Of a stretch of 64,000 nt of DNA, positions 4,795-63,007 are shown piece by piece. The DNA is from a bacterium (lineage in GTDB: Bacteria > Verrucomicrobiota > Kiritimatiellia > CAIKKV01 > CAITUY01). Numbering within the stretch: position 1 is the stretch's first letter; each line of letters opens with the position of its first letter. The stretch is taken from NCBI GenBank assembly GCA_037143175.1, contig JBAWZF010000011.1, positions 3,747 through 67,746 of the forward strand, read 5' to 3'. The notes beneath the pieces were generated by a model. It was given only the letters and a program-made list of their open reading frames with translations, was not told where the DNA came from and did no database searches. The position numbers and the translations under genes are program-made.

Positions 4795-4845
4795 TCTTGT
4801 CACTAAAAGATTAAAGGGTGCGGAGCACTTTTAGAGAGGTCGATT

Positions 4846-5280
4846 ATGTTAAAAGGTATTTCCCCGTTGTTGAGTCCTGAATTGCTATCTGTGTTGTGCC
4901 GGATGGGTCATGGGGATGAAATCGTGCTGGCGGATGCACATTTTCCCGGAGAGACGTTTGGGAAGCGTGTCATCCGGGCCGACGGGCTTGCGATTCCGGT
5001 TTTAATTGACGCCATATTGCCGGTATTCGAGCTGGACGCTTATGTGGACGCCCCGTTGGTCATGATGGCGGCAGTGTCCGGTGACAAACTTGATCCCCGC
5101 GTTGAGAAGGCCTATCGTGCGGCGGTTGACCGGCATGCTCCAAAAACTCCGGCTATCGCTCGAATTGACCGGTTTGCCTTTTATGACCGGGCGCAATCCG
5201 CCTTCGCGGTAGTGATGACCGGCGAACTGGCAAAGTATGGAAATATCATCCTCAAAAAGGGTGTGACGCCAGTTGGGTGA
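4846..5280 (+). CDS. RbsD/FucU family sugar mutarotase (L-fucose mutarotase-like)
   Basis: [34 protein letters not shown] is the hallmark N-terminus of the RbsD/FucU family. About 144 aa. Confidence 0.8.
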
Positions 5281-5284
5281 ACCG

Positions 5285-14782: not shown

Positions 14783-14785
14783 CCT

Positions 14786-15781
14786 ATGCAGTCCCGGCGT
14801 AAACTTTTGATCATCATTGTGGCGAGTATATTGGTTCTGCTTTTGGCGGGAGCAGCGACGCTTCTGGTGCGGGGGTTTCTGCAATTGCAAGAGGTGGATG
14901 CCAGCCTGCAAACTGCAAGCGAAACCTTGACTTCACTGTACGCGCAAAATCCATTCCCCTCTGGTGGTAATCTTCGGCTTGAGCGTGAGAATATTAAGAG
15001 TATTGGAGAGGAATTGCTTGGATTACAGTTGGCGATGAGCGAGGGGCAGGTGGAGCCGATTGCGCAAAGTCCCGCCAAATGTATCACTCAATTCTGGGAG
15101 ACGCGGAACTCACTTCTAGCTCGAGCCGGAGGTACCGTGAAAATTGATAAAGGGTTTGATTTTGGATTTGGACGACACATGAAGGGGGATTTGCCATCGA
15201 TTCAAGATGTGCCCAGGATTGCCCAACAATTGAAGATTGTCGAAACCTTGTGCAGTATTTTGTACGCTTCGAAAATTACGGCGTTGACCTGGATTTCCCG
15301 ACAAGAATTTGAGTCGGATGCCGCACTTGCTGCATTGCCTGGTAAACCTGCCAGCGGTACCACGGCTGCAAAAGCGGGGGCTGATATTGTGGTTAAAAAT
15401 GTGGCTGATGCGACAGCCGGTTTGATTCCTGCCGGGCAACTGTATGGCCGTTGGCATTTCATTGTCCAGTTTACTGCGCGCGAAGGGGCGCTGATGAAAG
15501 TTTTAAACGGGATGTCGCGCAGTCCTGTGTTTATTATTGTGACCCGTATGGAGATCAAAGGTGACGATAAGGTGTTTGATCGAAAAGAGGCGGAAGCGGT
15601 AGCGGCCAAGTCGGCCGAACGCAATGAAGACGCTGGCGCCAAGGAGGCGGTAAAACCTAGAGATGCACGAGTTGTTTGTGGTCGGGATGCCCTAGTCAAT
15701 GTAAAGCTTGAGTTGGACGTATATCAGTTTGCAAAGCCGCAAACCAATGAGCCAGAAAAGAAGCTGGGGGGGGTAAAATGA
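14786..15781 (+). CDS. PilO-like membrane-anchored protein; likely Amuc_1100 homolog
   Basis: N-terminal TM anchor and a coiled-coil region. The C-terminus (FIVQFTAREGALMKVLNGM...VNVKLELDVYQFAKPQTNEPEKK) resembles the Amuc_1100 C-terminus as I recall it. Confidence 0.55.
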   Translation: MQSRRKLLIIIVASILVLLLAGAATLLVRGFLQLQEVDASLQTASETLTSLYAQNPFPSGGNLRLERENIKSIGEELLGLQLAMSEGQVEPIAQSPAKCITQFWETRNSLLARAGGTVKIDKGFDFGFGRHMKGDLPSIQDVPRIAQQLKIVETLCSILYASKITALTWISRQEFESDAALAALPGKPASGTTAAKAGADIVVKNVADATAGLIPAGQLYGRWHFIVQFTAREGALMKVLNGMSRSPVFIIVTRMEIKGDDKVFDRKEAEAVAAKSAERNEDAGAKEAVKPRDARVVCGRDALVNVKLELDVYQFAKPQTNEPEKKLGGVK

Positions 15782-16809
15782 CGGTCACCAGCATAAATTC
15801 TTTTTTTCAGAAAAATTATGACAGGCTTATAGCTGCGGTCGTGCTTATGGCGTTGCTGGCCTCGCTGGTTTTCCTTGCTGTTCAGGCCAAAGTTCAAAAA
15901 ACTGGGCAACAGGAGTTTGATAGCAAACTTGCAGGTTTGACTCCGAAATTTGCAAAGGCTGCCCCTGCGGACAAAACTATTTTCCGGGATGCATTAACGG
16001 CCATTGCAAACCCATTCCAGGCTGAAGAGTGGATGCAGGATCTTTTGTTAACCCCTGAGCTGAGGGTTCGCTGTGTGGTGTGTGAACGGCCCATCCCCTA
16101 TGCTGCGACAAACTGTACGTTTAAGGCTTGCGGCGTTGAGCAACCTACTGAAAAAGTCCACTTGGATGATTCAAATAGTAATAGGATCCCTGATGAGTGG
16201 GAAAAGAAATATTCGTTCTTTTCCATGACTTCCGACGAAATGACAGTTGATCATGATAATGACGGTTTTACATCCAGAGAGGAATACGACTGGAAAACGG
16301 ATCCACGGGATACGGGAAGCCATCCGCCGTACCTGGCAAAAGTCAGAGTTTCCGGGATTAAACCGATTCCATTCAGGATGATATTTAAGGCGGTAAACCG
16401 TGCGGGTGGAAAGCTGATCTTTCAGATTAATTTGCAGGCAAACGGGAGATCGTTCTACAAGAGTTTAGGGGAAGATGCGGAAGGCTTTAAATTGGCCTCC
16501 TATGATGAGAAGGCTGCGGACGGCCCTACTCTGACGCTGGAGCGTAATGGAAAGCAAATTCCCTTAATTAAAGGGCATCAAGTGCCGCGTGATGATTATG
16601 AGATTTCGTTAGTCTCGCTCTTGGATGAATCGGTTTTTGTTGTGCGGCCGGATGTGGATTTCGAATTTAAGGGAGACCGGTACAGGGTTAAAAAAGTTGA
16701 CACACAAGGGAGTCGTGTACTAATAAGCGACCCTTTACGGAATGTGGATGTTTGGATTGAGCGGCAGGCGCCTAGCGTAGATCAACCAGCGGCAACCCCC
16801 ATTAGATAA
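15778..16809 (+). CDS. membrane-anchored hypothetical protein with a Cys4 zinc-ribbon-like motif (PilP position)
   Basis: N-terminal TM helix, CVVCERPIPYAATNCTFKAC, and an acidic DHDNDGFTSREEYDW calcium-binding-like motif. 4-bp overlap with the upstream gene. Confidence 0.5.
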   Translation: MTVTSINSFFQKNYDRLIAAVVLMALLASLVFLAVQAKVQKTGQQEFDSKLAGLTPKFAKAAPADKTIFRDALTAIANPFQAEEWMQDLLLTPELRVRCVVCERPIPYAATNCTFKACGVEQPTEKVHLDDSNSNRIPDEWEKKYSFFSMTSDEMTVDHDNDGFTSREEYDWKTDPRDTGSHPPYLAKVRVSGIKPIPFRMIFKAVNRAGGKLIFQINLQANGRSFYKSLGEDAEGFKLASYDEKAADGPTLTLERNGKQIPLIKGHQVPRDDYEISLVSLLDESVFVVRPDVDFEFKGDRYRVKKVDTQGSRVLISDPLRNVDVWIERQAPSVDQPAATPIR

Positions 16810-16853
16810 TAAAGCCGCAAGGCTGTGACTAAAGAATGTAAGGAGAACGATTT

Positions 16854-23474: not shown

Positions 23475-24525
23475 CCCTCCGATCATTACGATCAGATCCG
23501 GTCAGATCGATCATAAGGCCGTTCGCGCGGCCGTAGAAGCCCTACATACCGGGGCCTTGATCATTTTGCCGACCGAGACTGTTTACGGAGTTGCGGCTGA
23601 TCCTAGGGTGCCTGGGGCTGAGGACCGGATCTATGAGGCCAAAGGGCGCGAGCGTAGCAAGCCGCTGCCCATGATGGCAGCCTCGCTAAAAGCTGTTGAG
23701 GCTACGGGCGCTGAGTTATGTCCCGCGGCGAGGCGGCTAGCCTGCCGTTATTGGCCTGGCCCACTGACGCTGGTGGTGAACTGTGGTTCTCGGGTAGAAG
23801 GCTTTCGAGTACCCAATCATCCAGTCGCGCTGGCCATTTTGCAGGCGGTAGGTGGTTTATTGCGTGTGACCAGCGCCAATCAAAGCGGTGAGCCTTCTGC
23901 GCTCACTGCGGCATCTGCCTTACAGGCGTTAGGTCAGCATGTGGCACTCGTTCTGGATGCTGGTTCCGCCAGATTGGGTATGGAAAGTACGGTGGTGGAT
24001 GCGACGGGGGACACCTTGAAGATTCTCAGGCAGGGGGCACTACCAGCCAAGGCCATTCTGTCGCGACCAAAAGTGTGGCTGGTTTGTACGGGGAATACGT
24101 GTCGCAGTCCTATGGCCGAGTATTTATTGCGTCACTGGCTGGGGCCTGCGCCCCAATGGGAAGTGGCGTCAGCTGGCGTATCGGCACTGGATGGGCAGCG
24201 GGCAAGTGAGTGTGCGATTCAGGTCATGCAGGAAAAAAAGCTGGATTTGGCTTCGCATAGGAGCCGGAAACTGACTGAGGCCCTCATTGACGATGCAGAC
24301 CTCATTGTGGTAATGACGGAGGCGCATAAGCGGGCAATTTTGCATCGTTTTCCATGGCTTGACGACCGCGTGGTGCTATTGAATACGTTCAGTTCTGCAC
24401 ACCCCGGGGAAGATGTTCCTGATCCATTTGGAATGTCGCTGGCCGTCTATCGTGCAATTCGGGATGAGATTGATGCGGCAATGCCTGATTTGCTGTTGCA
24501 TTTACATGGGTTGTATCACAAGTGA
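23461..24525 (+). CDS. L-threonylcarbamoyladenylate synthase (Sua5/YrdC/YwlC) fused to a low-molecular-weight protein-tyrosine phosphatase
   Basis: YrdC domain ([14 protein letters not shown]). C-terminal LMW-PTP P-loop [19 protein letters not shown] plus a DP motif. Starts at 23392 and 23404 are also possible. Confidence 0.75.
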
Positions 24526-24543
24526 TCTAGAGTGGAACGGACG

Positions 24544-26239
24544 GGAAAGGGTTATGATGAAAATAGCGATTGGTGCGGATCATGGCGGTTTTGAACTTAA
24601 AGAGACGCTTAAGGCGGAGTTGAAAAAACACAGGATCGCTGTTGAGGATGTGGGGTGTTACAGCGTGGAAGCCGTGGATTATCCTGACTATGCCCGGGCT
24701 GTCGCCGTTATGGTTTCTGAAGGGCTTGTGGATCAGGGAATCCTGATTTGTCGAACGGGTCTGGGGATGAGCATGGCGGCCAACAAGTTTCCCCGTGTCA
24801 GGGCAGCGTTGTGTCTGAATCCCGAGATGGCGATTGCCGCGCGCACTCATAATGATGCTAACGTTCTCGTCTTCGGCAGCGATATGGAGACGCCTGCAGC
24901 AGCCATGGCGACATTAGATGCCTGGCTCAAGGCTGTATTTGCAGGCGAAGATCGGCATCAGCGACGTGTGGATAAGATTGGTTCCGCAAAAGGGGCGGCT
25001 TTGGAGGCGGCTTCCATCGCGGAGACGGATAGTGAGATCTACCTCGCAATCAAAAATGAAGAAGAGCGTGAGCTGAAAACGCTGGACTTGATTGCCTCTG
25101 AAAACTATGCCAGTCGCGCGGTTCGTGAAGCCCAGGGTTCGGTTATGACCAATAAGTATGCCGAAGGGTACCCCGGGAAGCGTTACTATAACGGTTGTGA
25201 GTTTGTGGATGTGGCCGAGCGGCTGGCGATTGAGCGGGCTAAGGCCTTGTTTGGCGCGGAACATGTCAACGTGCAGCCGCACTGTGGAAGTTCGGCTAAC
25301 ATGGCGGTATATTTTTCTGTTCTCCAGCCGGGCGATACCATTCTGGCTATGAGTCTTGCTCATGGAGGCCATCTGACTCACGGACATAAAATCAATTTCT
25401 CGGGACGGTTCTTCAACTTCATTCCGTATGGGGTCAGCCAGAAGACAGAAATGATTGATTATGATGAAATCGCGGAACTGGCGCTCAAGCATAAGCCCAA
25501 AATGGTGGTTGCAGGCGCCAGTGCCTATGCCCGTGTGCTCGATTTCAAGCGGCTTCGTGAAATCGCGGATAGCGTGGGGGCTATGCTCATGGTCGATATG
25601 GCGCATATCGCAGGCTTGATCGCAGCCGGAGTGCATCCTAGTCCGGTTCCGTATGCTGACTTTGTCACGACCACCACGCATAAAACGCTCCGGGGGCCCC
25701 GCAGTGGAATGGTGCTATGTAGGGCAAGTTACGCCGCCGGGATTGATAAACAGGTTTTTCCCGGTCTGCAGGGCGGTCCCTTGATGCACACCATTGCGGC
25801 CAAGGCGGTTTGCTTTAAAGAGGCGATGTCGCCGGAATTCAAACAATATCAAAAACAGGTCGTTAAGAATGCCAAGGCGTTGGCTGCGTATCTTGCCAAG
25901 CATGAGTTACGAATTGTGTCGGGAGGAACCGATAATCACCTGATGCTGGTCGATCTGACCTCCAGTGGCATTACGGGAAAAGACGCTTCGATCGCCCTCG
26001 AGAAGGCGGGTATGATTGTAAATAAAAATGCCATTCCGTTTGACGTTCGGCCTCCGGCTGTCACTTCGGGAATTCGCATTGGGACGCCCGCCATCACCAC
26101 GCGGGGTATGAAGGAACCTGAGATGGAACGACTGGGCGGCTGGATTGTGGATGCGATTAAACATCAGGCTGATGAAAGTGCCCTGGCGCGAATCAAGGCG
26201 GAGGTGGTGTCCACTGCGGTGACGTTTCCCGTCCCGTAA
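24544..26239 (+). CDS. glyA: ribose-5-phosphate isomerase B fused to serine hydroxymethyltransferase
   Basis: About 150 aa of RpiB ([16 protein letters not shown]...) run without a stop into a full GlyA ([45 protein letters not shown]). Confidence 0.8.
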
Positions 26240-32619: not shown

Positions 32620-32800
32620 ACCAGAAGCCGTGAAGTAAGTATGGAAGTTCGTGAAATTCGAACGCGGTCGCGCCGCTGTAACCGGATACGAAACCCTTAA
32701 ACCACTCCTGTCAAGGCAGGGGGAAGGTGGGTAGTAGGTCTGAAGCCGGAAGTCAGAAGACGTTTTACTTCATGCTCAATGGACAGGTAACAGGATTTGT
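32620..32800 (+). promoter_or_regulatory. cobalamin (AdoCbl) riboswitch
   Basis: GGAAGTTCGTGAAATTCGAACGCGGTCGCGCCGCTGTAACCGG parallels the E. coli btuB core GGGAAUCCAGUGCGAAUCUGG...GCGCAGCGGUAAGG. B12-box-like ACCACTCC...GGGAAGG. Sits upstream of a TonB-dependent receptor. Confidence 0.8.
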
Positions 32801-32900: not shown

Positions 32901-33009
32901 TGCGTTGAGAGACCGTGAGCAGCTGGCCGATGGAGGTGGATCAGGAATGGGGCGTAGGACTGGATCCGGCGCTCGGGATGCTGAAACGGGTGGATTGGGA
33001 GTCAACGAA

Positions 33010-34875
33010 ATGAAGAAAACAGTATGGATGGGGTTGGTCGTGGCGGGTGGGTTGAGTTGGAGCGAGGCGGCAATCACGAATGAGGTTCCTCTGCAAAGTG
33101 TGGTGGTTACGGCAACACGGGTTGAGCAATCACTTGCGACGGTGGGGAGCTCCGTGACAGTGGTCGATCAGGCGCAACTGGCGGAGCGCCAATGTCGCAC
33201 GGCGTATGACGCCTTGCGTGAAGTTCCCGGGCTGGATGTGGTGCAGTTGGGCGGTGCAGGCGGGACTATGTCGACTCTCATTCGAGGAGCGGCTTCTGAG
33301 CAGACGCTTGTCCTGGTGGATGGGGTCCCTGTTAATGACCCCGCTGGATTGGGGCGTGGCGCCGATCTTTCCCAGATGCCGGTGCAGAATGTCGAGCGCA
33401 TTGAAGTGTTGCGGGGGCCGCAAAGCACCCTCTACGGTGCCGATGCGATTGGCGGGGTGATCAATGTCATCACCAAAAAAGGTGCAGGGCCGGTCGGCGG
33501 CGAGGTGTCTGCCGAGGCGGGCTCCTTTAATACCTTCAATGAGACTGCTGCTGTTCGCGGCGGAACATCAAACTACAATTACTCTGTAGGGGTATCCCGT
33601 CAGGATTCGGACGGCATTTCGAGTGCTGCTGAGAAGAATGGCAATCCTGAGAAAGATGGCTATCACCGGACAGATCTTTCGAGCAAATTGGGGTGGACCC
33701 CGATGGATGAATTTGAGGCCCATGTGCTCGTGCGTTGGAACAAGGCCGACTACGACTACGATGACTTCATGAATGGCCGGCCCGTAGATGGTGACAACCA
33801 TGGTATTTCGGATCTGGTTTCGCTCTATGGGGAGGGGAAGGGGAAGTTGCTTGATGGGCAATGGCGACCGCGTGTGGGTGGGTCATGGGTCAGTCAGAGT
33901 CGTGAGGATACGTCGTCGGTCGGGAATTCTTCATTTGACAGTTTGCTGCAGAAGCTTGAATGGCAGAATGACATGTATTTGGGGAATGCCAATATTGTCA
34001 CGGCCGGTATTGAGGCCCAGCAGGAATCTGCAGAGTCAACCTATGAATCATTCGGATATGTGGATCAGTTTAATCGGAAAACAGCGAAGCATCGCAGTGC
34101 GTATGTGCAGGATATCCTTTCGGCCGGGCCGCTGACGACCACGGTGGGGGGACGGGTGGATAGTTATGATTCATTTGGAACTGAAAACACCTGGCGTGTG
34201 GCTCCGTCGTATGACATGGCGGCCACTGGAACCCGGTTCAAGGGGTCATACGGTACCGGTTTCAAGGCGCCATCCCTGTTTCAACTCTATTCATCCTATG
34301 GTAGCCCGGAATTAAATCCGGAGACCAGTAAGGGGTGGGATGCTGGCGTAGAGCAGGAAGTTGCCGGGGGCTTTCTCGTAGTGGGCGCCACTTATTTTGA
34401 AAATCAGTTTGATGACCTGATTGACTATGATTTTGTCACCATGAAATACGGGAACATCAATCAGGCTGAAACCCGCGGCGTCGAAACTTTTGTCACGGCG
34501 AAGCCGGTGAAAGAACTTTCGGTACGGGCGGCCTACACATATACTGATACGGAAAACAAAATTACCGGTGACCAGTTATTGCGGCGTCCTCGCAACAAGG
34601 TGTCTCTCGATACCACGTATGCGATTACTTCAAAGCTAAAAGGAACGGTCAGTGTCATTTATGTCGGCCAACGAACAGATGAGGACTTTGTGACCTATAT
34701 GCCTGCGACACTGGATGGGTACATGCTGGTGAACCTTTATGCCTCGTATGACGTTCGTAAGAATGTGACATTATTCGGTCGACTTGAAAATCTGTTTGAT
34801 GAGGAATATGAGCAGGCCATCGGCTATGGCACTCCGGGGCGCGCCGGATATGGGGGCGTCAAAGTGACGTTCTAA
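33010..34875 (+). CDS. btuB: TonB-dependent outer-membrane receptor, BtuB-like (vitamin B12 uptake)
   Basis: Signal peptide MKKTVWMGLVVAGG. TonB-box region VVVTATR. Plug and beta-barrel with a C-terminal aromatic residue (VKVTF). Preceded by the cobalamin riboswitch. Confidence 0.85.
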   Translation: MKKTVWMGLVVAGGLSWSEAAITNEVPLQSVVVTATRVEQSLATVGSSVTVVDQAQLAERQCRTAYDALREVPGLDVVQLGGAGGTMSTLIRGAASEQTLVLVDGVPVNDPAGLGRGADLSQMPVQNVERIEVLRGPQSTLYGADAIGGVINVITKKGAGPVGGEVSAEAGSFNTFNETAAVRGGTSNYNYSVGVSRQDSDGISSAAEKNGNPEKDGYHRTDLSSKLGWTPMDEFEAHVLVRWNKADYDYDDFMNGRPVDGDNHGISDLVSLYGEGKGKLLDGQWRPRVGGSWVSQSREDTSSVGNSSFDSLLQKLEWQNDMYLGNANIVTAGIEAQQESAESTYESFGYVDQFNRKTAKHRSAYVQDILSAGPLTTTVGGRVDSYDSFGTENTWRVAPSYDMAATGTRFKGSYGTGFKAPSLFQLYSSYGSPELNPETSKGWDAGVEQEVAGGFLVVGATYFENQFDDLIDYDFVTMKYGNINQAETRGVETFVTAKPVKELSVRAAYTYTDTENKITGDQLLRRPRNKVSLDTTYAITSKLKGTVSVIYVGQRTDEDFVTYMPATLDGYMLVNLYASYDVRKNVTLFGRLENLFDEEYEQAIGYGTPGRAGYGGVKVTF

Positions 34876-34884: not shown

Positions 34885-35649
34885 ATGGGGGACAGCATTC
34901 AGAATTCAGGAATGATGGGAAGAATCCTGTTGAGCCCGACCTTGCGTCGGGCTTTCCCCCTTTCTCTGCTTTTGCATGTATTGGCTGTGGCGATAGTTTT
35001 GATCGGCATCAAGTATTGGCCGGTGGCTCCAGTCAGGTCGGTTCCAGTCGGGATGGTATTGGATGTCACCGAGCCAATGCGACCACAGGTGACTGCCGAA
35101 GAGCTGCCTGGGTTGGGCCAGGTGCTGGCGGAGATACCGCCAGAATCACGGATTGTGCCTTCCCCTGCAGTGCCTGAAACCCTTGCGCCCATGATTCCTG
35201 AGCCAGCCATCAAAGCTCCTGACCAGGTGTCGTTGTGGGTGCCGGTGATGCCTGAGGTGAGCCCAGTTGCCGGGGGCTCGCAGATCATGCAACCACCTGC
35301 CGTTCATACGTCTGGCCCGGCGGCGGGCATGGGGGTGCAGTCACAGTCTGTTTCCGGCGAGGGGCAGATTAAAGGTGGGCGGCCTATCGCGCTTTCAGAG
35401 ATCGTGCCGCGTTATCCCTATGGGGCAAGGATGCGTGGCGAGGCAGGGCGGGTGACAGTACATGTGCGCGTAAGTGACAAAGGGGTGGTGGAATCTGTGG
35501 AGGTTGTGAATGGAAGCGGCCATCCGGCATTGGATGACTCGGCCGTCACGGCGACAAAGAAGGCTCGATTCAAGCCTGCTGAGCAGGATGGAAAGCTCGT
35601 TCCTTCCGATATGAATCTACAATTTGAATTCCGGCTTGAGGAGCGGTAA
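34885..35649 (+). CDS. tonB: energy transducer TonB
   Basis: N-terminal TM helix, Pro-rich spacer (PEPAIKAPD...), and C-terminal TonB domain (IVPRYPYGARMRGEAGRVTVHVRVSDKGVVESVEVVNGSGHPALDDSAV). Confidence 0.8.
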   Translation: MGDSIQNSGMMGRILLSPTLRRAFPLSLLLHVLAVAIVLIGIKYWPVAPVRSVPVGMVLDVTEPMRPQVTAEELPGLGQVLAEIPPESRIVPSPAVPETLAPMIPEPAIKAPDQVSLWVPVMPEVSPVAGGSQIMQPPAVHTSGPAAGMGVQSQSVSGEGQIKGGRPIALSEIVPRYPYGARMRGEAGRVTVHVRVSDKGVVESVEVVNGSGHPALDDSAVTATKKARFKPAEQDGKLVPSDMNLQFEFRLEER

Positions 35650-44261: not shown

Positions 44262-46544
44262 TTGTTTTTTGTATATGGAAGGGCTAATATGCAAGAAACT
44301 ATGACCGCTAAAACAAACGTTTTATTTTCTGATCCGCTCCTGATGGGGGCTGATCCGGCTACGGGTTTGATGGCCGTGGAGCATGTTGAGCGCGCTGCTC
44401 AGGATCAGATGGTATTATTTTGGCGGAAGGAGGGGAGAACGGTCCAGACTGAAGTCTCTTTCTCTCCCTTTATTCTGATAGCTGATAAAGCACTTTTGGA
44501 GGGGCTCGAGAAGGGCGTGGAAGTGATCGCGCTTAAGGGAGATGCGCCCTTCCGCTGGAGGGCCAATTTTCCGACCTGGAAGGCCTGTCAGAAAGCCAAA
44601 GCCTGGTTGGCGAAAGAGACCGGGGTTATGGCGGGGAATCCACAGGCGCCCTACTTCTTGCTGACGGATCCTGTTCAGCAATATCTGATTCAAACGGGCC
44701 AGACCCTTTTCAAGGGCCTTAACTTTGCAGATCTACGCCGGATGCAGGTGGATATCGAGTGCTACACTACGGAAGGCTATGATTTCTGTAATGCGGCTCG
44801 TGAGGGAGACCGGTTGATTGCGATTGCGATGGGCGATTCATCGGGTTGGAGTGAGGTGTTGTCTGGTGATGAGTTGGACGAGAAGACGATGCTGGAGCGG
44901 TTTGTTGCCATTGTACGGGAGCGGGATCCAGATGTCATTGAGGGGCATAACATTTTCAATTTCGACCTGCCCTATATCGCTGCTCGAGCAAAGCGGGGCG
45001 GGGTAAAGCTGTCGATTGGTCGGAATGGGGCGCCCCCTGATTCGCGTCCGAGCCGGTTCTCGGTCGGGGAACGGACAATCTCATTTACGCGGTTTGAAGT
45101 GTTCGGACGGCAGATCGTCGACACTTATTTTATGGTGCAGGCTTATGATATTACCCACCGTGCGCTTGCCGGGTATGGTCTCAAGGAAGTGGCGCGACAT
45201 TTTGGAATTGCCCCTGCAAATCGGACCTACATTGAAGGCAGTGAAATTTCAGCAGAGTTTAAGCGCAATCCCCAAAAGTTGATGCAGTATGCCTTGCATG
45301 ACATTCAGGAAACAGAAGCGCTGAGCCGCCTGCTTTCCCAAAGTGCATTTATTCAAGCCCAGATGATTCCCCTCTCGTACCAGAACATCGCCATTCGCGG
45401 CAACGCCACCAAGATTGATGCCCTGATTTTGCGGGAATATCTCCACCAGAAACGGGCCATCCCTATGCCCGAACGAGGTCGTCCGTTTGCCGGGGGATAT
45501 ACAGATATGTTTATGGAGGGCGTTATCCGGAATGTGCATCATTGCGATGTGCGCTCACTTTACCCTTCGCTCATGTTGACACGTAAAATCGGACCCAAAA
45601 CTGACAGTCTCGAAGTGTTCCACCGGCTATTGGAACAGTTACGGCGTTTCCGGTTGGATGCCAAGCGTCATGAGCAGGAGGCATTCTCTGAGGGGGAGAA
45701 GTTGCATTTTGGTGCGTTGCAGGCCACATTCAAGATATTGATCAACTCGTTCTACGGTTATCTTGGATTCGATCAGGTACGCTTCAGCGATTTCGATGCC
45801 GCCGAGCGGGTGGCTTCGGAAGGGCGAGACCTGTTGCACCACATGATTGACTGGCTGAAAAAAAATGGGGCCCAGCCAGTTGAGATTGATACGGATGGCG
45901 TCTATTTTGTCCCCCCGACCGAAGGGGGCGTCAGCCAGAAATCATTCAGAAGCCATTTTTCAGCTTCCCTGCCCGAAGGCATTGACGTTGAGTTTGATGG
46001 CGAATATGTGGCGATGTTCAGCTACAAAATGAAAAATTATGCGCTGCTGACCGATAAGCAGGAGATTATTATTAAGGGAGCTGCGTTGAAGTCGCGCGGG
46101 CTGGAGCTGTTTCAACGGAATTTTCTGCGTGATATGATTCGACTTAAACTGGAAGGAAAAGAGGTCGAGATCCCGGCGTTAAAAACGCAATATGAATCAG
46201 CTATCCGGGACCGGCAGTGGCCTATTACGATGCTGGCCAAAACCGAAACGCTGCAGGATGCGCCTGCTACCTATGCCGCCAAGATTGAAGGGAAAGGCCG
46301 TGGGCGGAACGCAGCGTATGAGCTGGCGTTAACGTCTGGACGGGACTATCGAGCCGGGGATCAGTTGTCATACTACGTGGCAGGAATGAAGAAAACGGTG
46401 CAGGTGTTTGCTGCGGCGCGATTGGTGGCCGAGTGGAATCCCGTTGAGCGGGATGAGAATGTGCCGTACTATATCGCGAAATTGGATTCCCTCTATGAAA
46501 AATTCTGTGGTGGCAAACTGGGTGGTGAGCGGGAGGATGAATGA
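44262..46544 (+). CDS. polB: DNA polymerase, family B (Pol II-like)
   Basis: Exonuclease motifs DIECYT and NIFNFDLPY. Polymerase motifs RSLYPSLM, KILINSFYGYLG, EIDTDGVYF. An alternative start at 44289 is possible. Confidence 0.85.
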   Translation: MFFVYGRANMQETMTAKTNVLFSDPLLMGADPATGLMAVEHVERAAQDQMVLFWRKEGRTVQTEVSFSPFILIADKALLEGLEKGVEVIALKGDAPFRWRANFPTWKACQKAKAWLAKETGVMAGNPQAPYFLLTDPVQQYLIQTGQTLFKGLNFADLRRMQVDIECYTTEGYDFCNAAREGDRLIAIAMGDSSGWSEVLSGDELDEKTMLERFVAIVRERDPDVIEGHNIFNFDLPYIAARAKRGGVKLSIGRNGAPPDSRPSRFSVGERTISFTRFEVFGRQIVDTYFMVQAYDITHRALAGYGLKEVARHFGIAPANRTYIEGSEISAEFKRNPQKLMQYALHDIQETEALSRLLSQSAFIQAQMIPLSYQNIAIRGNATKIDALILREYLHQKRAIPMPERGRPFAGGYTDMFMEGVIRNVHHCDVRSLYPSLMLTRKIGPKTDSLEVFHRLLEQLRRFRLDAKRHEQEAFSEGEKLHFGALQATFKILINSFYGYLGFDQVRFSDFDAAERVASEGRDLLHHMIDWLKKNGAQPVEIDTDGVYFVPPTEGGVSQKSFRSHFSASLPEGIDVEFDGEYVAMFSYKMKNYALLTDKQEIIIKGAALKSRGLELFQRNFLRDMIRLKLEGKEVEIPALKTQYESAIRDRQWPITMLAKTETLQDAPATYAAKIEGKGRGRNAAYELALTSGRDYRAGDQLSYYVAGMKKTVQVFAAARLVAEWNPVERDENVPYYIAKLDSLYEKFCGGKLGGEREDE

Positions 46545-56393: not shown

Positions 56394-57272
56394 GTGACGA
56401 CCAGCATTCCAGATAAAGGCCGCGGCGAGCAGCGTGAAAATCTATTCTTTCTGTTTGTGATCCTGGCGGTCACGGTGATTGCGTATGGCCCCCTAATGGG
56501 TGGGGTATGGGAGATGAGTGCCCAGACCACTCAGGCCCTTAATGCCTTCGTGTTGTTGGGTGTGGCATTTGTAGATGCGCTGCTTACGGCGGTAAAAATG
56601 GGGCCGTTTCGACCCGCAATCAATTCCCACGGTTTGTTATTATTCGGGCTGTCCTGTCTGGCTCTGGCGACGGCATCCCTAGCGCAAGTATGGCCTTTTT
56701 CGGTTTTGGGATTATGTCTGAATGTGGGTGCCTTGTTATCGTTCTGTTTTGGCAAGAATGGGGTGAGGGCATTTTATCCCGCACTTGCGGGGTTTGCGGT
56801 GGTGGTTCTAATGCTGGTATTAGTACCGCAAGTTGATGAAACACTGAGGTTGCTTGCGGGCCGGATGTCTGCCTGGATATTGCCACTCCTCGGCATCCGG
56901 ATTGAATATTTAGTCCAGGCGATGCCCTTTCAAGTTTATCTTGTTGCGGAGAGAGGTGCGGGGGTGTTCAACGTGGCTACCGAATGCAGTGGTATGGGTA
57001 TTCTGATGTCCTCGATGGTGTTAAGTTTGATTCTAACCCTCAAGCGTCGAGTTCCGGCCTATGGTGTTATTCTTTTGCTGGCCGCATCCATGGTGATCGG
57101 GCTGGGGTTCAATATTCTTCGAATTGTGGCAATTGCGCTAACCGCACTCCGTACGGATCTCCCGTATTCCGTTATTCATGAAGGACTGGGAACAGGAGTT
57201 TATTTGTTGGCATTGCTGACCATATGGCTATTGAACTATTTGCCAATTACTGGAAGCCGTTCTTCATTATAG
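56394..57272 (+). CDS. exosortase/archaeosortase-family membrane transpeptidase (short form)
   Basis: Eight TM helices. Catalytic-triad-like motifs GAGVFNVATECSGM (Cys), FNILRIVAIAL (Arg), YSVIHEGLGTG (His). Starts 3 bp after the UPF0210 stop. Confidence 0.6.
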   Translation: MTTSIPDKGRGEQRENLFFLFVILAVTVIAYGPLMGGVWEMSAQTTQALNAFVLLGVAFVDALLTAVKMGPFRPAINSHGLLLFGLSCLALATASLAQVWPFSVLGLCLNVGALLSFCFGKNGVRAFYPALAGFAVVVLMLVLVPQVDETLRLLAGRMSAWILPLLGIRIEYLVQAMPFQVYLVAERGAGVFNVATECSGMGILMSSMVLSLILTLKRRVPAYGVILLLAASMVIGLGFNILRIVAIALTALRTDLPYSVIHEGLGTGVYLLALLTIWLLNYLPITGSRSSL

Positions 57273-57315
57273 GTGAGGATGCAGGCTGAAATTTTTTCTC
57301 GCATGATGGCGGCCG

Positions 57316-58098
57316 TTAGTTCTTTAGGTTGTCGGCCTGGTTTGTTGATGTTTCGCTGGCGCCCATGTTGGTGAAGTTATCGGGGACTGTCGATTCCTTC
57401 GGGTTTTGTGCGCGGGCTGCATCGAGAAAGCGGGTGGCAAATTCCATTTCACTTTGCGCAAGCTTAATTTCCTGCTCAATATTATTAGTCCTCGACTGAA
57501 TGAGCATGTCTTCGGCTTCGACAATCTCTGGGGGTGATGAGGTGAGGATGACTGTTGGGTTAATGAGTATGGTTGGGATATTTGTGACCATCCAGTCGGT
57601 ATTATTGGTGTCATTATTAGTGTAGGGGCGACTGAGGCGGGCGGCTGGGGTTGGGGGCGGAGTAATCTTGAAGAAAGAGCAATTACCTATCAGGAGAATG
57701 GTTGCTAAAACCAAAAGAGGCAGCCCGATGGTGAGCAATTTTCGCCATTTGCGGAAGCCCGCAAGGCCTTCCCACGTTCCCGTATTGAGGTAAGATTGGA
57801 CAAATAATCGTGTATGGCCGATTTCGATCACATCACCGTGTTTAAGGGGTGATTCATGAACTTCTGATTTGTTGATCAGGAGGCGGTTGGTTTCTCCCAT
57901 GACGCAAATCTGGAGTTGCTCGGCGCGGGGAGTGATCTTGGCGTGGAGTTCGCCGATTTCTGAATCGGGTAGACAAATGTCACAGGAACTGCCTCGTCCA
58001 ATGGTAACTGGGGAGCGTCCGATAGTGAGACGTTCCCCATGCTTTTCCCCATTAAGTATGACAAGTTGATAAGACATAAAGTGAGGCATCATACACAA
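57316..58098 (-). CDS. FHA domain protein with a single TM helix and an Asn/Thr-rich extracytoplasmic tail
   Basis: FHA motifs (LTIGRSPVTIGRGSSCDICLPD, SEIGELHAKI, NKSEV, GDVIEIG) followed by TM LLTIGLPLLVLATILLIG. Confidence 0.7.
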   Translation of the reverse strand: MCMMPHFMSYQLVILNGEKHGERLTIGRSPVTIGRGSSCDICLPDSEIGELHAKITPRAEQLQICVMGETNRLLINKSEVHESPLKHGDVIEIGHTRLFVQSYLNTGTWEGLAGFRKWRKLLTIGLPLLVLATILLIGNCSFFKITPPPTPAARLSRPYTNNDTNNTDWMVTNIPTILINPTVILTSSPPEIVEAEDMLIQSRTNNIEQEIKLAQSEMEFATRFLDAARAQNPKESTVPDNFTNMGASETSTNQADNLKN

Positions 58099-58128
58099 GC
58101 CTTAGCGGCGATTGCAGTCTTTTTTGCG

Positions 58129-60039
58129 TCAGTCGGTCAATCGTTGCGAGACGTAATCGGTATGGAGGGTGGGCGGTGGGATGGGGATATCGAACCAAGC
58201 CTGAAGTTCGAGATCTAAACCGGTGCCATACATGTAATTGTAAAGGGATTTCCGGAGTCCGCAGCCCATAGCGTGATGATCGCATTTAACGGAATCCGTG
58301 AAAGGGACTTCATTGCGGGCGAAACTGGATTTTGGGAACCTTGAGAGGCGGATCCCGAACTTGCGGGGATCCATATAAATTGGGCTGTGGATTGTGAGTG
58401 CAAAGCGATGCCAATAGGCAGACTGAATGCATCCCGCTTCAAATAGTTGTCTCACATATTCCAGTGAATCCACCGTGTCTTGGATCGTTTGGGAGGGGCA
58501 GCCATACATGAGGTAGGCGTGAACCAGGATGCCCGCCTCACTTAATGCATGGGTGACTTGGGTGACTTGGTTGAGATTAAATCCTTTTGCAAGAAGGGTG
58601 AGAAGGCGGTCGGTAGCGGATTCCAGTCCGCCTGTTACGGCGATACAGCCTGATTTAGCCAGTAAGGCGGCGAGTTCGGGAGTGAAGGCTTTATCAAAGC
58701 GGATATTTCCCCACCAGGTGATTTTGAGATCACGTTCGATCAGTTGTTGCGCAAGTTTTCTCAGCAGGACTGGCGGCATGGCTTCGTCCACAAAGTGAAA
58801 CCCTGTTTGGCCGGTTTGTCTGATGATCTCCTCAATCTGCGAGATCAGGAATTCGGGAGAAGCGGGCACATAGTGCTGGATGTAGTCTAGACTGGTGTCG
58901 CAGAAGGCGCATTGGTGCCAGTAACATCCGTGAGCGAGCGTCAGTTTGTTCCAGCGCCCACATGACCAGATTTTGTGCATGGGATTGGGCAACTCGATCA
59001 AGGAGAAATAACGATCCAGCGGTAGTTCGGAATACTGGGGCGTGACGGGGGCCAAAGGTAATCTGGGAGATGGCATGTCTGACGTATTCCCATTTCCCGA
59101 GAGGAAACAAACACTTCCATTTTTGCGGATAAAAGTCCGTTCGAAATGCGGCGTGATGCGGGGATTGAGAAGTGTTAGAAGCGGAGTCTTCAGGTTCTCC
59201 AAGTGTTCGATAATACGCAAGATCGGACGGTCTCCCCCGTCGAGGGTGATGTAGTCGGCATAGTCGAATACGCGGAGATCAGAAAGTGAGCGAAGCTCAG
59301 TATTGATATAGCCACCGCCCATAACAATGGGAAGGTGTGGATCCTGCTTTTTGATATGCCGTGCCATTCGGAATGCAGCATAGACATTCCCAGGGAAGGG
59401 GAGGGTGAAGCCCACCAATTCAGGGTGATGAGTGTTCAGCAGTTCATCAGCTATATCATCAATCATGGAATCAATCAGGGTGGGTTTCCTGCGCAGGGCG
59501 GAGGCGATGCCGTCAAACGAGGAGGCGCTTGCGGCGAGTTTCTCAGCGTACTTTGCCAATTCAAAGCGGGCGTCGACGCCATCGCGAATAGCATCGGTAA
59601 GATCGTCAAGGTAAAGGCTTGCGAGATGAATGGCCAGGTCGTGGGTGGACAGATGCCCGAGGGTAGGAGCAAGATGGGCATGAGCTTCGGCCAGCGCTTT
59701 GAAACGGGGCCCTTCAGGCAGGAATTGGTGAGAGGCAATCCGCCATGCCAAGGTGGGATCCTTGCCCTGAAGGAAGCGGATGACGGGTTCGATAGTGGAG
59801 GCGTACTTTTTTGAGTGTCGTAGGAAATGGCGGACACTGTGTGAACGAGCTCCAGGTTTCATGACCTTGGCGACTTGGCGTAGTCCTGAACGGGAGAACA
59901 TGCGGAGTGCCAACATGAGCGCAGCATCGGCTTGAACAACCTTGTGTTTTGAAGGCTTTAGCAGGCCAGCCAGATAAGCGGTAGCCGGGTAGGGTGCATT
60001 TACTTGCACCATAGGGGGCGTTATCAGGAGGATGCGCAT
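58129..60039 (-). CDS. B12-binding-domain radical SAM protein (class B-like) with an atypical CX4CX2C cluster motif
   Basis: N-terminal MRILLITPP and LVGFTLPF...PIVMGGGY Rossmann-like B12 domain with a large insertion. CYWHQCAFC motif and VTGGLES (GGE-like motif). Confidence 0.65.
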   Translation of the reverse strand: MRILLITPPMVQVNAPYPATAYLAGLLKPSKHKVVQADAALMLALRMFSRSGLRQVAKVMKPGARSHSVRHFLRHSKKYASTIEPVIRFLQGKDPTLAWRIASHQFLPEGPRFKALAEAHAHLAPTLGHLSTHDLAIHLASLYLDDLTDAIRDGVDARFELAKYAEKLAASASSFDGIASALRRKPTLIDSMIDDIADELLNTHHPELVGFTLPFPGNVYAAFRMARHIKKQDPHLPIVMGGGYINTELRSLSDLRVFDYADYITLDGGDRPILRIIEHLENLKTPLLTLLNPRITPHFERTFIRKNGSVCFLSGNGNTSDMPSPRLPLAPVTPQYSELPLDRYFSLIELPNPMHKIWSCGRWNKLTLAHGCYWHQCAFCDTSLDYIQHYVPASPEFLISQIEEIIRQTGQTGFHFVDEAMPPVLLRKLAQQLIERDLKITWWGNIRFDKAFTPELAALLAKSGCIAVTGGLESATDRLLTLLAKGFNLNQVTQVTHALSEAGILVHAYLMYGCPSQTIQDTVDSLEYVRQLFEAGCIQSAYWHRFALTIHSPIYMDPRKFGIRLSRFPKSSFARNEVPFTDSVKCDHHAMGCGLRKSLYNYMYGTGLDLELQAWFDIPIPPPTLHTDYVSQRLTD

Positions 60040-60056
60040 GAATCACAGTCTGCCAG

Positions 60057-61277
60057 CTATCGGCCCAGCAAATTCCGTGACGCCATGATGTCCTTGAGTC
60101 GGGCTATGCTCTTTTCCGCCTGCAGCAATTCAGGGCCAAACTCGTCTGTGATAGAGGCGAGCAATTGATTGAGCGCAGCGATTTTCGACTCCAGTGGAGC
60201 GACCTTAGCTTCCAGATCAGCGATTTTACGGTTAGCGGTCATGGCATCAATAGCCGCTTTCCCAGCGAGATCATGAAGCGCATGTTCGGCCTCTTGAACG
60301 CGCATTTCGGCATATTGCACCTTCTTTTCAGCCTCATCCAAGCGCATAACAAAGCGCGATGATTCTTTGGTGGCTGATTCGAGCTTTGACTTCAGAGTGG
60401 CGATTTCTCCCACAAGTACCGTTGTGCCCGGTGAAGTGCGGGCCGTTGATAATGGCTCGTTCAAGCTCACTTCCGGCGGGGTCCACTTGGCAACAGGCGT
60501 AGGGAGTGGGGAAGGCTCCGGTTGCAGGCGCGGGACAACCTCTTCAACAACTGGTGTGGGAGCCGGCGCTGGCGGAGGGGGGACTGGAAGTGGAGCGACA
60601 GGAATAGCCGCCGGTGCTGGAGGTTCGATCGGCGCGACGGGTGCAGGGGGAACAGCAATTACTGGTTCTGCAACGGGGGCTTTTGCGGCAGCAGCCGGTT
60701 CAGGCAAAGTGACCGGGATGATGCCTGAGCACTGCTTGCATTTGATTTTTTTTCCGATGAGCGTTTGTGAAACTTTGGTCTGCCACTGGCAGGCCGGGCA
60801 GACGACGGGAATATTGGCCCCGCTGGAGGCATCTGGAACCTGGCCGAGGACGATAGGAGCGGCCGCTTTTTTGGCGGTGCTAACAGGCGAAGAAGAGGGG
60901 GCTTGTTGCATCGGTTTCGGCGGCGGAGTTAATTGAGCAGTATCACTTGCCGCAGCGGCTGGGGACGTAACGACAGGCGTGACTGGCGCAACGACAGGGG
61001 CGGCTGGGGCCACGACTGCAGGAGCCGCTTGCGGTGGAGGTGCAAGCACAACAGGAGTTGCAGCAATGGGGGCAAAGGGTGTGCTGGCGACAGGTGCGGG
61101 GGTAGCCGGAACTGAGGGTGCCTGAACAGGGGTGGCGGCAGCGGCTGGGGCACCCTTGCCAACGGGAATGGGTTTGCCGCACTTCGGGCATTTCACTTCC
61201 GTAGGCATTCTGGCCGGCATGGCCTTGATTTTAAGCTTAGCCTTACAATTTCCACACTCAATAGGAATCAATTCCAT
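60057..61277 (-). CDS. double zinc-ribbon, Pro/Ala/Val-rich, C-terminal coiled-coil protein
   Basis: Two CxxC...CxxC ribbons (CGNCKAK...CPKCGKP; CPACQWQ...CKQCSG), long PAV low-complexity linkers, and a C-terminal heptad-rich region of about 120 aa. Confidence 0.7.
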   Translation of the reverse strand: MELIPIECGNCKAKLKIKAMPARMPTEVKCPKCGKPIPVGKGAPAAAATPVQAPSVPATPAPVASTPFAPIAATPVVLAPPPQAAPAVVAPAAPVVAPVTPVVTSPAAAASDTAQLTPPPKPMQQAPSSSPVSTAKKAAAPIVLGQVPDASSGANIPVVCPACQWQTKVSQTLIGKKIKCKQCSGIIPVTLPEPAAAAKAPVAEPVIAVPPAPVAPIEPPAPAAIPVAPLPVPPPPAPAPTPVVEEVVPRLQPEPSPLPTPVAKWTPPEVSLNEPLSTARTSPGTTVLVGEIATLKSKLESATKESSRFVMRLDEAEKKVQYAEMRVQEAEHALHDLAGKAAIDAMTANRKIADLEAKVAPLESKIAALNQLLASITDEFGPELLQAEKSIARLKDIMASRNLLGR

Positions 61278-61422: not shown

Positions 61423-62706
61423 TTATAGCACACTGTGATGTTTGCGGATTCTGGCTGTTTCATGGAGGGATACCCGCGCCTGGGAAGCAAAGTCCTGCCA
61501 TGCTGAAACCGTTTTCCCAACCTGTTGTAGAACCTTTGCGGCGGTGCCGATGCCGAATCGGTCTGCCACAGCCAGCAGGTCGGCTCGGGAGATGCCGGAG
61601 AATTTCCCATTGACCGCCATGAGATGTTGATTCGTCCATTCGCCTTCGGGATTGTGGGCATGGGTTACATCGTAGGCTGGGGCTAGCGTCCAGCTTCCCC
61701 TCTCGCGCAGCAGGAACGTGAAGTTTTTGCTGTGGTCGTCGCAATTGGCTGCCATCACATTGAAGGCCATCCGGCGGAACGCTTCTTCCATGGCTGTATA
61801 TCCAAGTTTCAGGCGTGAGATCGTCTGGAAGAGTTGACTGTAATCGTGGCTGGCCTTCTGCTTGTAATCCAAGTGCGCCATTGCGCAAAGGGTCTGCATG
61901 TGATGTTTGCGGTTTCCGTCCCGGTCGAAGCGCAGGGTCATGAAGTGTGCTCGGTCGTTTTCCTCCAACAACCGGGAGGATGACATGGTCATGCCGGCGG
62001 ACGTGGCCATCAGGTAGTAGGCGTATTCGATCCGCCCATAATCCTGAGAACTTCCCAATTCCCGATCTGTGCCCATGCCGTCGAATTTAAGCAGCCAGTG
62101 TTCATAGCCGGGGGCGACATCGAACTGTCCGGCGCGGATCTCCTGTGTCGTCGGGTTCCATGCAATCACCGCTTTTGCCCTGGCTCCGCCCGCCGAGGTT
62201 CCCACCCGGATGATCTGTGTCAGCGCTGCTCCGGCCAAATGGTCCGCGCCGAGATCGCCCCGCACGGCAAGGCGGGCACTTTCGACAAGTTTGGCAAGAG
62301 AGAGCGCCGTACTGTTAATTGTCGCTGGACTGCGGGCCGGCCGGAATTCCAGGGCTCCCATGCCGCGTTTCCCCATATAGGCTAGACGATCCAGGGGCGT
62401 GATATGCGAGCGATCAACACCTTGCATGGCCATCCAACCGTCAATTAGTGTATTGCCAAAATCATCCGGAAGGGCATCGGCCAGCAGGGCGGGCAGGCGT
62501 TTGTAGGTCAGTTCAGGCAGGTCTGTGAACACGAAAGGGGCGCTCGCTTGGGCAAGGGGCATGGTCAGGGGTGCAAGCTCGATGCCCGACCGAACGAAGG
62601 CCGGATCGTATTCAAACGCATAGTACCCCAATCGGGAGTCCAGCGCCACGGCTCCGACCGTCTTTTCCCACAAGCGGACTTCGATGATATGGACAGGCTT
62701 ATACAT
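61423..62706 (-). CDS. hipA: HipA-family serine/threonine kinase toxin
   Basis: HipA N-terminal and C-terminal domains, and the catalytic motif ANCDDHSKNFTFLL. Confidence 0.8.
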   Translation of the reverse strand: MYKPVHIIEVRLWEKTVGAVALDSRLGYYAFEYDPAFVRSGIELAPLTMPLAQASAPFVFTDLPELTYKRLPALLADALPDDFGNTLIDGWMAMQGVDRSHITPLDRLAYMGKRGMGALEFRPARSPATINSTALSLAKLVESARLAVRGDLGADHLAGAALTQIIRVGTSAGGARAKAVIAWNPTTQEIRAGQFDVAPGYEHWLLKFDGMGTDRELGSSQDYGRIEYAYYLMATSAGMTMSSSRLLEENDRAHFMTLRFDRDGNRKHHMQTLCAMAHLDYKQKASHDYSQLFQTISRLKLGYTAMEEAFRRMAFNVMAANCDDHSKNFTFLLRERGSWTLAPAYDVTHAHNPEGEWTNQHLMAVNGKFSGISRADLLAVADRFGIGTAAKVLQQVGKTVSAWQDFASQARVSLHETARIRKHHSVL

Positions 62707-63007
62707 GTGGTATGTCCTTAGCTCTGGATGCCCGTTGGCGAACCGGCTTGGATTTTAGCATTTGCATGGGACTGATGGAGATCTGGGGGGCCAGTGTGCC
62801 AAGCCACTCCTCACGGCCCAGGGCGCGGAGGACTTTGATCAGGGATACGACAGTGGAACCTTTCCCTTTCTCTAGATGCTTAACGACGTTCAGGGCCACG
62901 CCGGCCTGTGCGGCAAGTTGGCGCTGGTCAATGTTCTGGCGCAGACGTAGGTCGTGCAGGTGTCGCCCCAGCTGTGCTTCCCATTCCTCTGTCGTTAAGT
63001 CACTCAT
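62699..63007 (-). CDS. hipB: HipB-like XRE-family HTH antitoxin
   Basis: HTH_XRE (LRQNIDQRQLAAQAGVALNVVKHLEKGKG). 8-bp overlap with the hipA start. Confidence 0.75.
   Translation of the reverse strand: MSDLTTEEWEAQLGRHLHDLRLRQNIDQRQLAAQAGVALNVVKHLEKGKGSTVVSLIKVLRALGREEWLGTLAPQISISPMQMLKSKPVRQRASRAKDIPHV

Follow-up and report, generated by a model that had tools for sequence, protein, structure and literature searches.

The window analysed here, a stretch of 64,000 nucleotides from a bacterium of the Kiritimatiellia (contig JBAWZF010000011.1), carries a gene cluster that is specific to one clade and has partly decayed here. In its ancestral form this cluster consists of four genes, encoding a zinc-ribbon/coiled-coil protein, a radical S-adenosylmethionine (SAM) enzyme, an FHA-like membrane protein and a GT2 glycosyltransferase. 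Its radical SAM enzyme represents an uncharacterised subfamily of the cobalamin type, and the cluster itself, restricted to one lineage, is undescribed. The enzyme is read here, with a probability of roughly 0.5, as an orphan cobalamin-dependent radical SAM protein, probably a methyltransferase, which has a lineage-specific scaffold partner and a loose link to the cell envelope and is not engaged in phosphothreonine signalling. All coordinates are positions in the window; codes in L and P designate the related contigs and proteins, respectively, with which it was compared.

Organization of the locus

Three open reading frames (ORFs) were found on the minus strand, at positions 60057 to 61277 (zinc-ribbon/coiled-coil protein, 406 aa, predicted to be cytoplasmic as it displayed no hydrophobic helix), 58129 to 60039 (orphan radical SAM enzyme of the cobalamin type, class B; 636 aa) and 57316 to 58098 (FHA-like single-pass membrane protein, 260 aa). 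As called, they are separated by 17 bp (zinc-ribbon/radical SAM) and 30 bp (radical SAM/FHA). The likelier start of the FHA gene is the ATG at 58092 or 58089, which lies behind AAGG and extends the second gap to 36-39 bp. The public call of the radical SAM protein, P0001 (627 aa), is nine codons short at the N-terminus. All homologues open with MR.LL.TPPM, the first strand of the Rossmann domain, and the start of P0001 removes this conserved strand (MRILLITPP in the window), which is why the 636-aa start was considered correct. A promoter and terminator scan of the cluster gave no internal terminator and no convincing promoter, with uninformative counts that did not exceed the shuffled expectation. 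Co-transcription of the cluster genes is plausible.

An earlier note, made from the letters of the window, had described three co-directional genes with these gaps, adjoining hipBA and convergent with an exosortase gene. This arrangement was recovered from the ORF coordinates, with a hipA/hipB toxin-antitoxin pair at 61423 to 63007 (minus strand, outside the cluster; Pfam, NCBIfam) and the exosortase gene at 56394 to 57272 (plus strand). Its description of the three proteins likewise agreed with the alignments and predicted structures presented below, which displayed an expanded B12-like N-terminal domain and a CX4CX2C motif in place of CX3CX2C in the radical SAM enzyme, two ribbons, linkers rich in Pro, Ala and Val and a C-terminal coiled coil in the first protein, and one membrane helix followed by an Asn/Thr-rich exterior tail in the FHA protein.

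Radical SAM enzyme

The enzyme exceeded the gathering cut-off of Pfam family Radical_SAM (PF04055, 39.9 bits; cut-off 29.5). An AlphaFold2 model built from 69 homologues (predicted local distance difference test, pLDDT, 91.3; predicted template modelling score, pTM, 0.91) displayed a cobalamin-type (class B) fold with an N-terminal Rossmann domain of the cobalamin-binding type, and Foldseek returned 74 matches to radical SAM structures at E ≤ 0.001, in keeping with the partial TIM barrel of this superfamily. In the model, the expansion of the N-terminal domain corresponds to an all-helical insert of about 165 residues (residues ~39-205; 59425 to 59925, minus strand) between strands beta2 and beta3. 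This insert is family-specific and strongly conserved, with invariant columns including P108, G110, R112, F113, D146 and D149.

To judge from sequence and model, the Rossmann domain carries each of the three sequence features by which base-off cobalamin binding is recognized, namely a GxSxL-like motif after beta3, Gly-Gly on beta4 and Gly-Glu at the start of alpha5 (PMC9204698). The predicted motifs GxTxP, GGG and G(E/D), located by conservation and model position, span 59227 to 59412 (minus strand). G210-x-T212-x-P214 follows beta3, G241-G242-G243 stands at the end of beta4 and G269-(E/D)270 precedes helix 271-284; all three are conserved, residue 270 being E or D, and D in the window.

The [4Fe-4S]/SAM cluster motif (58900 to 58926, minus strand) reads CYWHQCAFC, or C372-x4-C377-x2-C380, and was invariant in the 69 homologues. 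This spacing is not new, the precedents being OxsB (PMC9204698) and GenD1 (PMC4340712), which display the same CX4CX2C within cobalamin-type radical SAM enzymes; it was also described for GenK and Sis14 (PMC4340712). In addition, V-D-E at the 'GGE' position of the window enzyme resembles A-D-E of OxsB. Megacluster-4-11 of RadicalSAM.org, which has CX4CX2C, was rejected as a relative; it sits in the biotin/thiazole-synthase megacluster and not in the B12 group. The only conserved cysteines of the family were C372, C377, C380 and C465, which indicates a single cluster and no auxiliary site. Methylthiotransferases of the MiaB/RimO type carry an auxiliary cluster bound by three N-terminal cysteines and end in a TRAM domain. 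This identity was excluded, no auxiliary-cluster cysteines being present among the conserved four.

Searches against Pfam, NCBIfam and the sequences of the Protein Data Bank (PDB) reached no characterised family, and no equivalog cut-off of NCBIfam was attained. The best NCBIfam score was that of PhpK (87 bits; cut-off 600), followed by that of a C-methyltransferase of ribosomally synthesized and post-translationally modified peptides (RiPPs; TIGR03975, 85 bits; cut-off 282). BchE (40 versus 481), HpnJ (34 versus 578) and HpnR (17 versus 650) scored lower still, and BzaD, the ladderane family TIGR04072 and ArsL were also far under their NCBIfam cut-offs. The classification by profile and structure that the earlier note had called for gave a class-B-type fold and no characterised family. 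Neither an RRE/PqqD nor a SPASM domain was detected in the three proteins with Pfam and NCBIfam, and no small conserved precursor-like ORF was found in the cluster. Homologues are named 'radical SAM protein' or 'B12-binding domain-containing radical SAM protein' in databases, or carry the COG label YgiQ; nothing relevant on the gene cluster or the family was found in the literature.

A profile search of the PDB with the family gave AprD4 (E = 6e-4), MgmA (6e-3) and TsrM (0.09). Sequence likeness to the class B structures TsrM, TokK, CysS, MgmA and OxsB was barely detectable, MgmA being the best of them. The window enzyme differed from these structures in the helical insert that splits its Rossmann domain and in the location of its gene outside any natural-product cluster. 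AprD4, a radical SAM diol dehydratase with a B12-like domain, matched over about 95 residues only; it belongs to an aminoglycoside cluster, and its NCBIfam model gave the window enzyme 26.6 bits against a cut-off of 500.

The fold by itself is no proof of cobalamin use, as AprD4 illustrates. The enzyme could likewise display a B12-type fold, make no use of cobalamin and catalyse radical chemistry other than methylation, for instance a dehydration, a rearrangement or the formation of a C-C bond. Such an account is in line with a B12-binding score under the Pfam cut-off (18.6 versus 32.1 bits), and several carrier lineages (Polynucleobacter, Bdellovibrionota) are not known to produce B12. It was nonetheless judged unlikely, given that GxTxP, GGG and GE are all conserved where a cobalamin-binding domain would have them and that the genome displays a cobalamin riboswitch together with a TonB-dependent receptor. 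The riboswitch (RF00174, 72.9 bits; 32643 to 32761, plus strand) precedes the receptor gene (32905 to 34875) and a TonB gene (34885 to 35649), in what looks like a B12 uptake unit. Since the riboswitch lies upstream of the receptor gene, the organism regulates and probably imports B12. In the preferred reading, the enzyme would use SAM together with cobalamin and would most likely methylate an unactivated carbon, by analogy with the commonest class B chemistry.

Distribution outside the clade of the window

The family was confirmed in at least 595 species-level genomes; this is a lower bound, obtained with two family-specific peptide patterns in species-representative genomes, where 595 of the 600 stretches listed were confirmed. 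A protein search with the window enzyme gave 7,999 scored matches, and identity over the full length still stood at 55 % for the match ranked 120th. Identities of 50-55 % and about 100 invariant columns were maintained across Proteobacteria, Myxococcota and Bdellovibrionota. Carriers included Chromobacterium, Vogesella, Rubrivivax, Hydrogenophaga, Acidovorax/Paracidovorax, Achromobacter and Polynucleobacter as well as many Myxococcota and Bdellovibrionota. Among the 80 best loci, the family was seen in diderm phyla only.

In 80 loci from phyla outside the clade of the window, which is hereafter called PVC-like (Planctomycetes-Verrucomicrobia-Chlamydiae), the radical SAM gene stands alone. No relative of the zinc-ribbon protein was detected near it by tblastn in any of these 80 loci, and an FHA-domain match was found in one (L004, 2.8 kb downstream). 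Non-homologous Cys-ribbon neighbours were encountered in two of the 80 by a regular-expression scan; this was judged to be chance level, and a non-homologous zinc-ribbon partner in other phyla was rejected. When flanking ORFs were clustered, the largest group was present in 14 loci and consisted of generic histidine kinases. A Pfam census of the 237 genes within two positions counted PseudoU_synth_2 six times and DUF455 five times, none being more frequent than six. The attempt to derive a function from these neighbourhoods was given up, as no neighbour was conserved and the hint from pseudouridine synthases was too weak.

That hint, a weak one, is at an RNA-related role: genes of RsuA/RluE/RluF-type pseudouridine synthases adjoin the radical SAM orthologue in L004, L006, L009, L040, L050, L070 and L071. 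Some loci displayed mnmA or queE/queD/tadA nearby.

The earlier note had regarded an assignment to a characterised family, together with unrelated neighbours in other genomes, as speaking against its proposal. Neighbours outside the clade were indeed unrelated, and no characterised family was assigned. The substrate of the enzyme would be common to many diderm bacteria and encoded away from the radical SAM gene.

Conservation of the cluster within the PVC-like clade

The asparaginyl-tRNA synthetase of the window was closest to homologues from metagenome-assembled genomes labelled Verrucomicrobia (68 %) and Lentisphaerae (66 %), and the placement among PVC bacteria proposed earlier was therefore reasonable. 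Contexts within this clade were gathered by contig look-ups and by one metagenome scan with the zinc-ribbon alignment, and were mapped by tblastn. The zinc-ribbon gene was located directly upstream of the radical SAM gene in 14 out of 18 non-redundant, informative contexts, with gaps of 0-84 bp. The FHA gene followed 3' of the radical SAM gene in seven out of 11, and GT2 came after FHA in five out of seven. L089 was an exception, in which the zinc-ribbon gene was followed by a short partial ORF unlike the radical SAM N-terminus and then by the contig end.

Two more distant contexts, L090/L091 and L093, kept the order zinc-ribbon, radical SAM, FHA, GT2 with a radical SAM protein 55 % identical to that of the window. 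Their FHA proteins, of about 500 aa, could be aligned to that of the window over the FHA domain only. Flanking genes were unrelated to those of the window, with L21, L27, obg, efp and an epmA-like gene upstream and OEP-MacA-MacB-FtsX downstream. As the FHA-GT2 pair comes after the radical SAM gene in two deep branches whose flanks are unrelated, all four genes are considered to have been part of the ancestral cluster. Co-occurrence of the zinc-ribbon, radical SAM and FHA genes, which the earlier note had proposed to examine across PVC genomes, thus extended beyond close relatives within the PVC-like clade and was not seen in the 80 loci outside it.

In a rough neighbour-joining tree, the window enzyme grouped with L081, L083, L085, L090, P0058, P0042 and others. 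All zinc-ribbon-linked sequences formed one clade, apart from the proteobacterial, myxococcal and bdellovibrional ones.

Two further observations were made on these contigs. In L090/L093 (~2600-5850), the cluster is divergent from efp and a tRNA-synt_2 gene of 287-305 aa (epmA-like). In L083/L084 (1-716), another B12-binding radical SAM gene (554 aa), different from the orthologue, is located some 7 kb upstream of it.

GT2 remnant and exosortase

The fourth gene has decayed in the window. On the minus strand, the interval from the FHA stop (57316) to the exosortase stop (57272) codes for MREKISACILTYNEER. In relatives GT2 opens with the 16 residues MREKISACILTFNEER, 15 of which are identical to this scar (tblastn, 94 % over 16 aa; frames read; scar at 57257 to 57304, minus strand). 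A remnant ending in MKNGFQ*, which matches the GT2 C-terminus, lies just downstream of the 16-codon scar. With the N-terminal 16 codons and a C-terminal remnant surviving, GT2 has been deleted internally.

An intact GT2 gene (269 aa) occupies this position in L081, L086, L087, L090 and L093. GT2 was the most conserved member of the cluster, with 67-69 % identity between L081 and L090. Assignment to a known glycosyltransferase equivalog failed, the best match being the SunS family with 52 bits against a cut-off of 350.

The exosortase gene adjoined FHA-GT2 only in the near clade (L081, L086, L087 and L095) and was absent from L090 and L093. The exosortase of the window matched Exosortase_EpsH (Pfam, 70 bits) and reached no NCBIfam subtype; a regular-expression scan of the real ORFs of the 64-kb window gave no PEP-CTERM-like tails.

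Zinc-ribbon/coiled-coil protein

This protein displayed two zinc ribbons, each modelled by AlphaFold2 as four-stranded. Ribbon 1 covers residues 3-38 (C8/C11/C30/C33; 61164 to 61271, minus strand) and ribbon 2 residues 155-188 (C160/C163/C180/C183, CPACQWQTKV...IGKKIKCKQC; 60714 to 60815, minus strand). All eight cysteines were invariant across the alignment. The linkers are rich in Pro, Ala and Val (63-65 %) and were predicted to be disordered (pLDDT <50). Residues 283-405 (60063 to 60431, minus strand) were modelled with pLDDT 96-98 as a single long C-terminal helix, presumably a coiled coil; it is unbroken over 123 residues and gave weak matches to coiled-coil families. Two motifs, KKAAAPIVL and AEKALHDLAGK, were conserved, the former amid the variable Pro/Ala-rich linkers.

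The family is small, with 27 representatives at E<1e-10 among 1.84 billion. It shares two CxxC-x16-18-CxxC ribbons and their beta-hairpin topology with proteins of the MJ0042 and FmdB types. Scores for MJ0042 (TIGR02098) were under the cut-off of 20.9 (13.8 bits for the window, 19.0 bits for L090), the Cys pattern and beta-hairpins being present twice, and the weak MJ0042/DZR matches on ribbon 1 were all below cut-off too. These scores, and an architecture of ribbons, linkers and a 123-residue helix, set it apart as a small separate family.

One may ask whether this protein is itself the substrate, methylated or otherwise modified by its neighbour in the KKAAAPIVL motif. MgmA, Mmp10 and PoyC are radical SAM enzymes that modify proteins and peptides. 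A conserved linear motif within disordered linkers, the tight adjacency of the two genes and the second-best NCBIfam match of the enzyme, a RiPP C-methyltransferase (far below cut-off), all accord with this idea. It is nevertheless very unlikely, because in phyla devoid of a zinc-ribbon homologue the radical SAM enzyme is still 50-55 % identical and keeps about 100 columns invariant; the lack of RRE/PqqD and SPASM domains also argues against it. In the clade, the zinc-ribbon protein would be a dedicated partner, co-transcribed with the enzyme. Since the enzyme is conserved in phyla without it, it would probably serve as a scaffold or in localisation and not as a substrate.

FHA-like membrane protein

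The FHA-like domain (residues 14-100) was matched best by the Pfam model Yop-YscD_cpl (PF16697, 57.4 bits; cut-off 33.2; 1.8e-15), which represents the YscD-type cytoplasmic, non-phosphopeptide-binding form, and also by FHA (PF00498, 48.7 bits; cut-off 20.7; 1.1e-12). A hydrophobic helix starts at residue 121 (LLTIGLPLLVLATILLIGN) and is the single predicted transmembrane helix. The tail beyond it contains 25 % Asn+Thr and displays, in the alignment of orthologues, a conserved extracytoplasmic motif, DTNNTDWMVTN..I......LTS.PPEIVEA (residues 163-195; 57514 to 57612, minus strand), with D168, V171, T172, N173, I179 and P189 invariant. This family is again small, with 17 full-length homologues among 5.8 billion proteins.

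Proteins of the SctD/YscD and TagH/FhaB types are built alike, with an FHA-like cytoplasmic domain at the N-terminus and one transmembrane helix after it. The window protein differs from them in having no ring-building periplasmic domains, and its cluster in having no secretion-system genes. NCBIfam scores were far below cut-off for SctD (TIGR02500, 20.9 versus 86, N-terminus only), TagH (30 versus 120) and FhaB (47 versus 125). Type III secretion genes were not found in the annotated parts of the window or in related loci.

FHA domains that read phosphothreonine contact it through Gly-Arg, Ser-x-x-His and Asn. In the alignment His52 and Asn76 were invariant. The canonical Ser, three residues before His52, was present in only three of the 17 orthologues; the window has Gly in its place, and L090 and L093 have Ala. 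Arg35 was replaced in five of the 16 members covering that column. With Ser mostly absent and Arg35 often replaced, canonical recognition of phosphothreonine appears unlikely on these residues.

The earlier note had inferred phosphothreonine binding and, from it, a signalling-coupled modification system in which a kinase other than HipA might take part. In such a system, a Ser/Thr kinase would phosphorylate a partner, and the FHA protein would read the phosphothreonine and control the radical SAM enzyme. Three observations would fit such a system: the FHA fold itself, the position of the FHA gene after the radical SAM gene in seven out of 11 contexts and, 145 bp upstream of the cluster in the window, the presence of hipA, which encodes a toxin of the kinase type. 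Against this stand the non-canonical residues just described, the YscD-type best model, the absence of hipBA at the corresponding position in all relatives examined, and the fact that no kinase occupied any conserved position near the cluster in these relatives. Neither phosphothreonine binding nor signalling was therefore retained, and signalling of this kind is most improbable.

Envelope link and significance

The FHA-like protein and GT2 would link the zinc-ribbon/radical SAM pair to envelope polysaccharide or export functions. This proposal draws on GT2 itself, on the membrane anchor, on exosortase, polysaccharide and MacAB-TolC-type neighbours and on the restriction of the family to diderm phyla in the retrieved loci. 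Upstream of the zinc-ribbon gene, polysaccharide genes were present in L081 and L094 (also on the P0152 contig), a sugar epimerase in L088 and L092, efp and the epmA-like gene in L090 and L093, and ABC-F in L083.

Several observations weigh against the preferred reading. The evidence for the envelope link comes entirely from neighbouring genes, and the zinc-ribbon/radical SAM and FHA-GT2 pairs are separable. The former occurred without FHA in L083, L085, L094 and L101, and L087 displayed PTA-FHA-GT2, convergent with exosortase, with no radical SAM gene within 1.6 kb. GT2 was lost in the window and in L095, the rest of the cluster being kept. Moreover, carB, the gene of the large subunit of carbamoyl-phosphate synthase, is inserted between the zinc-ribbon and radical SAM genes in L085 (3600-9872), L092 and L108. 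These insertions indicate that the cluster tolerates an unrelated housekeeping gene, so that co-transcription need not mean shared function.

The same observations bear on a possible though rather unlikely account in which the genes are merely juxtaposed. The radical SAM protein would then be a housekeeping modification enzyme, acting for instance on rRNA, tRNA or a ribosomal protein. Gene order would reflect inherited synteny and a shared promoter, and the FHA-GT2 pair would belong to the exosortase/polysaccharide system. The carB insertions and the FHA-GT2-exosortase arrangement of L087 agree with this, as does the solitary radical SAM gene in the 80 loci of other phyla, where the commonest neighbour was a pseudouridine synthase of the RsuA/RluE type (six of 237 genes, in several lineages). 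The mnmA or queE/queD/tadA genes near some loci fit as well. However, mere synteny accounts poorly for a zinc-ribbon/radical SAM adjacency (0-84 bp) that persisted in 14 out of 18 contexts despite wholly changed flanks, or for a four-gene order found in two deep branches at 55 % radical SAM identity. A distribution limited to diderms among the 80 best loci would also be unexpected for a general translation-related role.

The preferred reading, an orphan enzyme with a scaffold partner and a loose envelope link, can be carried further to a doubtful proposal. The four genes might form an undescribed inner-membrane-associated modification machine of PVC-type bacteria. In it, a cobalamin-dependent radical enzyme and a glycosyltransferase would produce an envelope glycan or glycolipid that is C-methylated or altered by radical chemistry in some other way, organised by the zinc-ribbon/coiled-coil protein as scaffold and by an FHA-like anchor; the thousands of stand-alone orthologues of Proteobacteria, Myxococcota and Bdellovibrionota might perform the same reaction on a shared envelope component.

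The family is large, conserved and of class B type, with no assigned reaction, and a function established for one member could inform thousands of genes. Its carriers include culturable and genetically tractable bacteria (Chromobacterium, Paracidovorax, Rubrivivax, Achromobacter), and it is only in the cluster of the PVC clade that the genomes hint at a partner (the zinc-ribbon/coiled-coil protein) and at a cellular location (the envelope). Orphan radical SAM families are common; the value of this one is that of a well-defined experimental target, and it is neither a surprise nor does it open a long-standing question.

Other features of the window

The hipBA pair appears to be a local toxin-antitoxin insertion. 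Beyond it, a tandem repeat with a unit of 198 bp (at least 3.2 copies, 85 % matches) extends from 63373 to the window end at 64000; its minus strand encodes a Pro/Glu/Thr/Val-rich protein of 66-residue repeats that had no Pfam match. On the plus strand, a single ORF at 24413 to 26239 combines an RpiB-type ribose-5-phosphate isomerase (residues 51-189) with a serine hydroxymethyltransferase (residues 203-578) and represents either a gene fusion or two neighbours that the first-start rule has joined. Positions 44262 to 46544 (plus strand) encode a family B DNA polymerase with exonuclease and polymerase domains. Finally, type IV pilus/secretin genes are located at 13055 to 19712 (plus strand), including PilM (13055 to 14782) and a 952-aa secretin (16854 to 19712).

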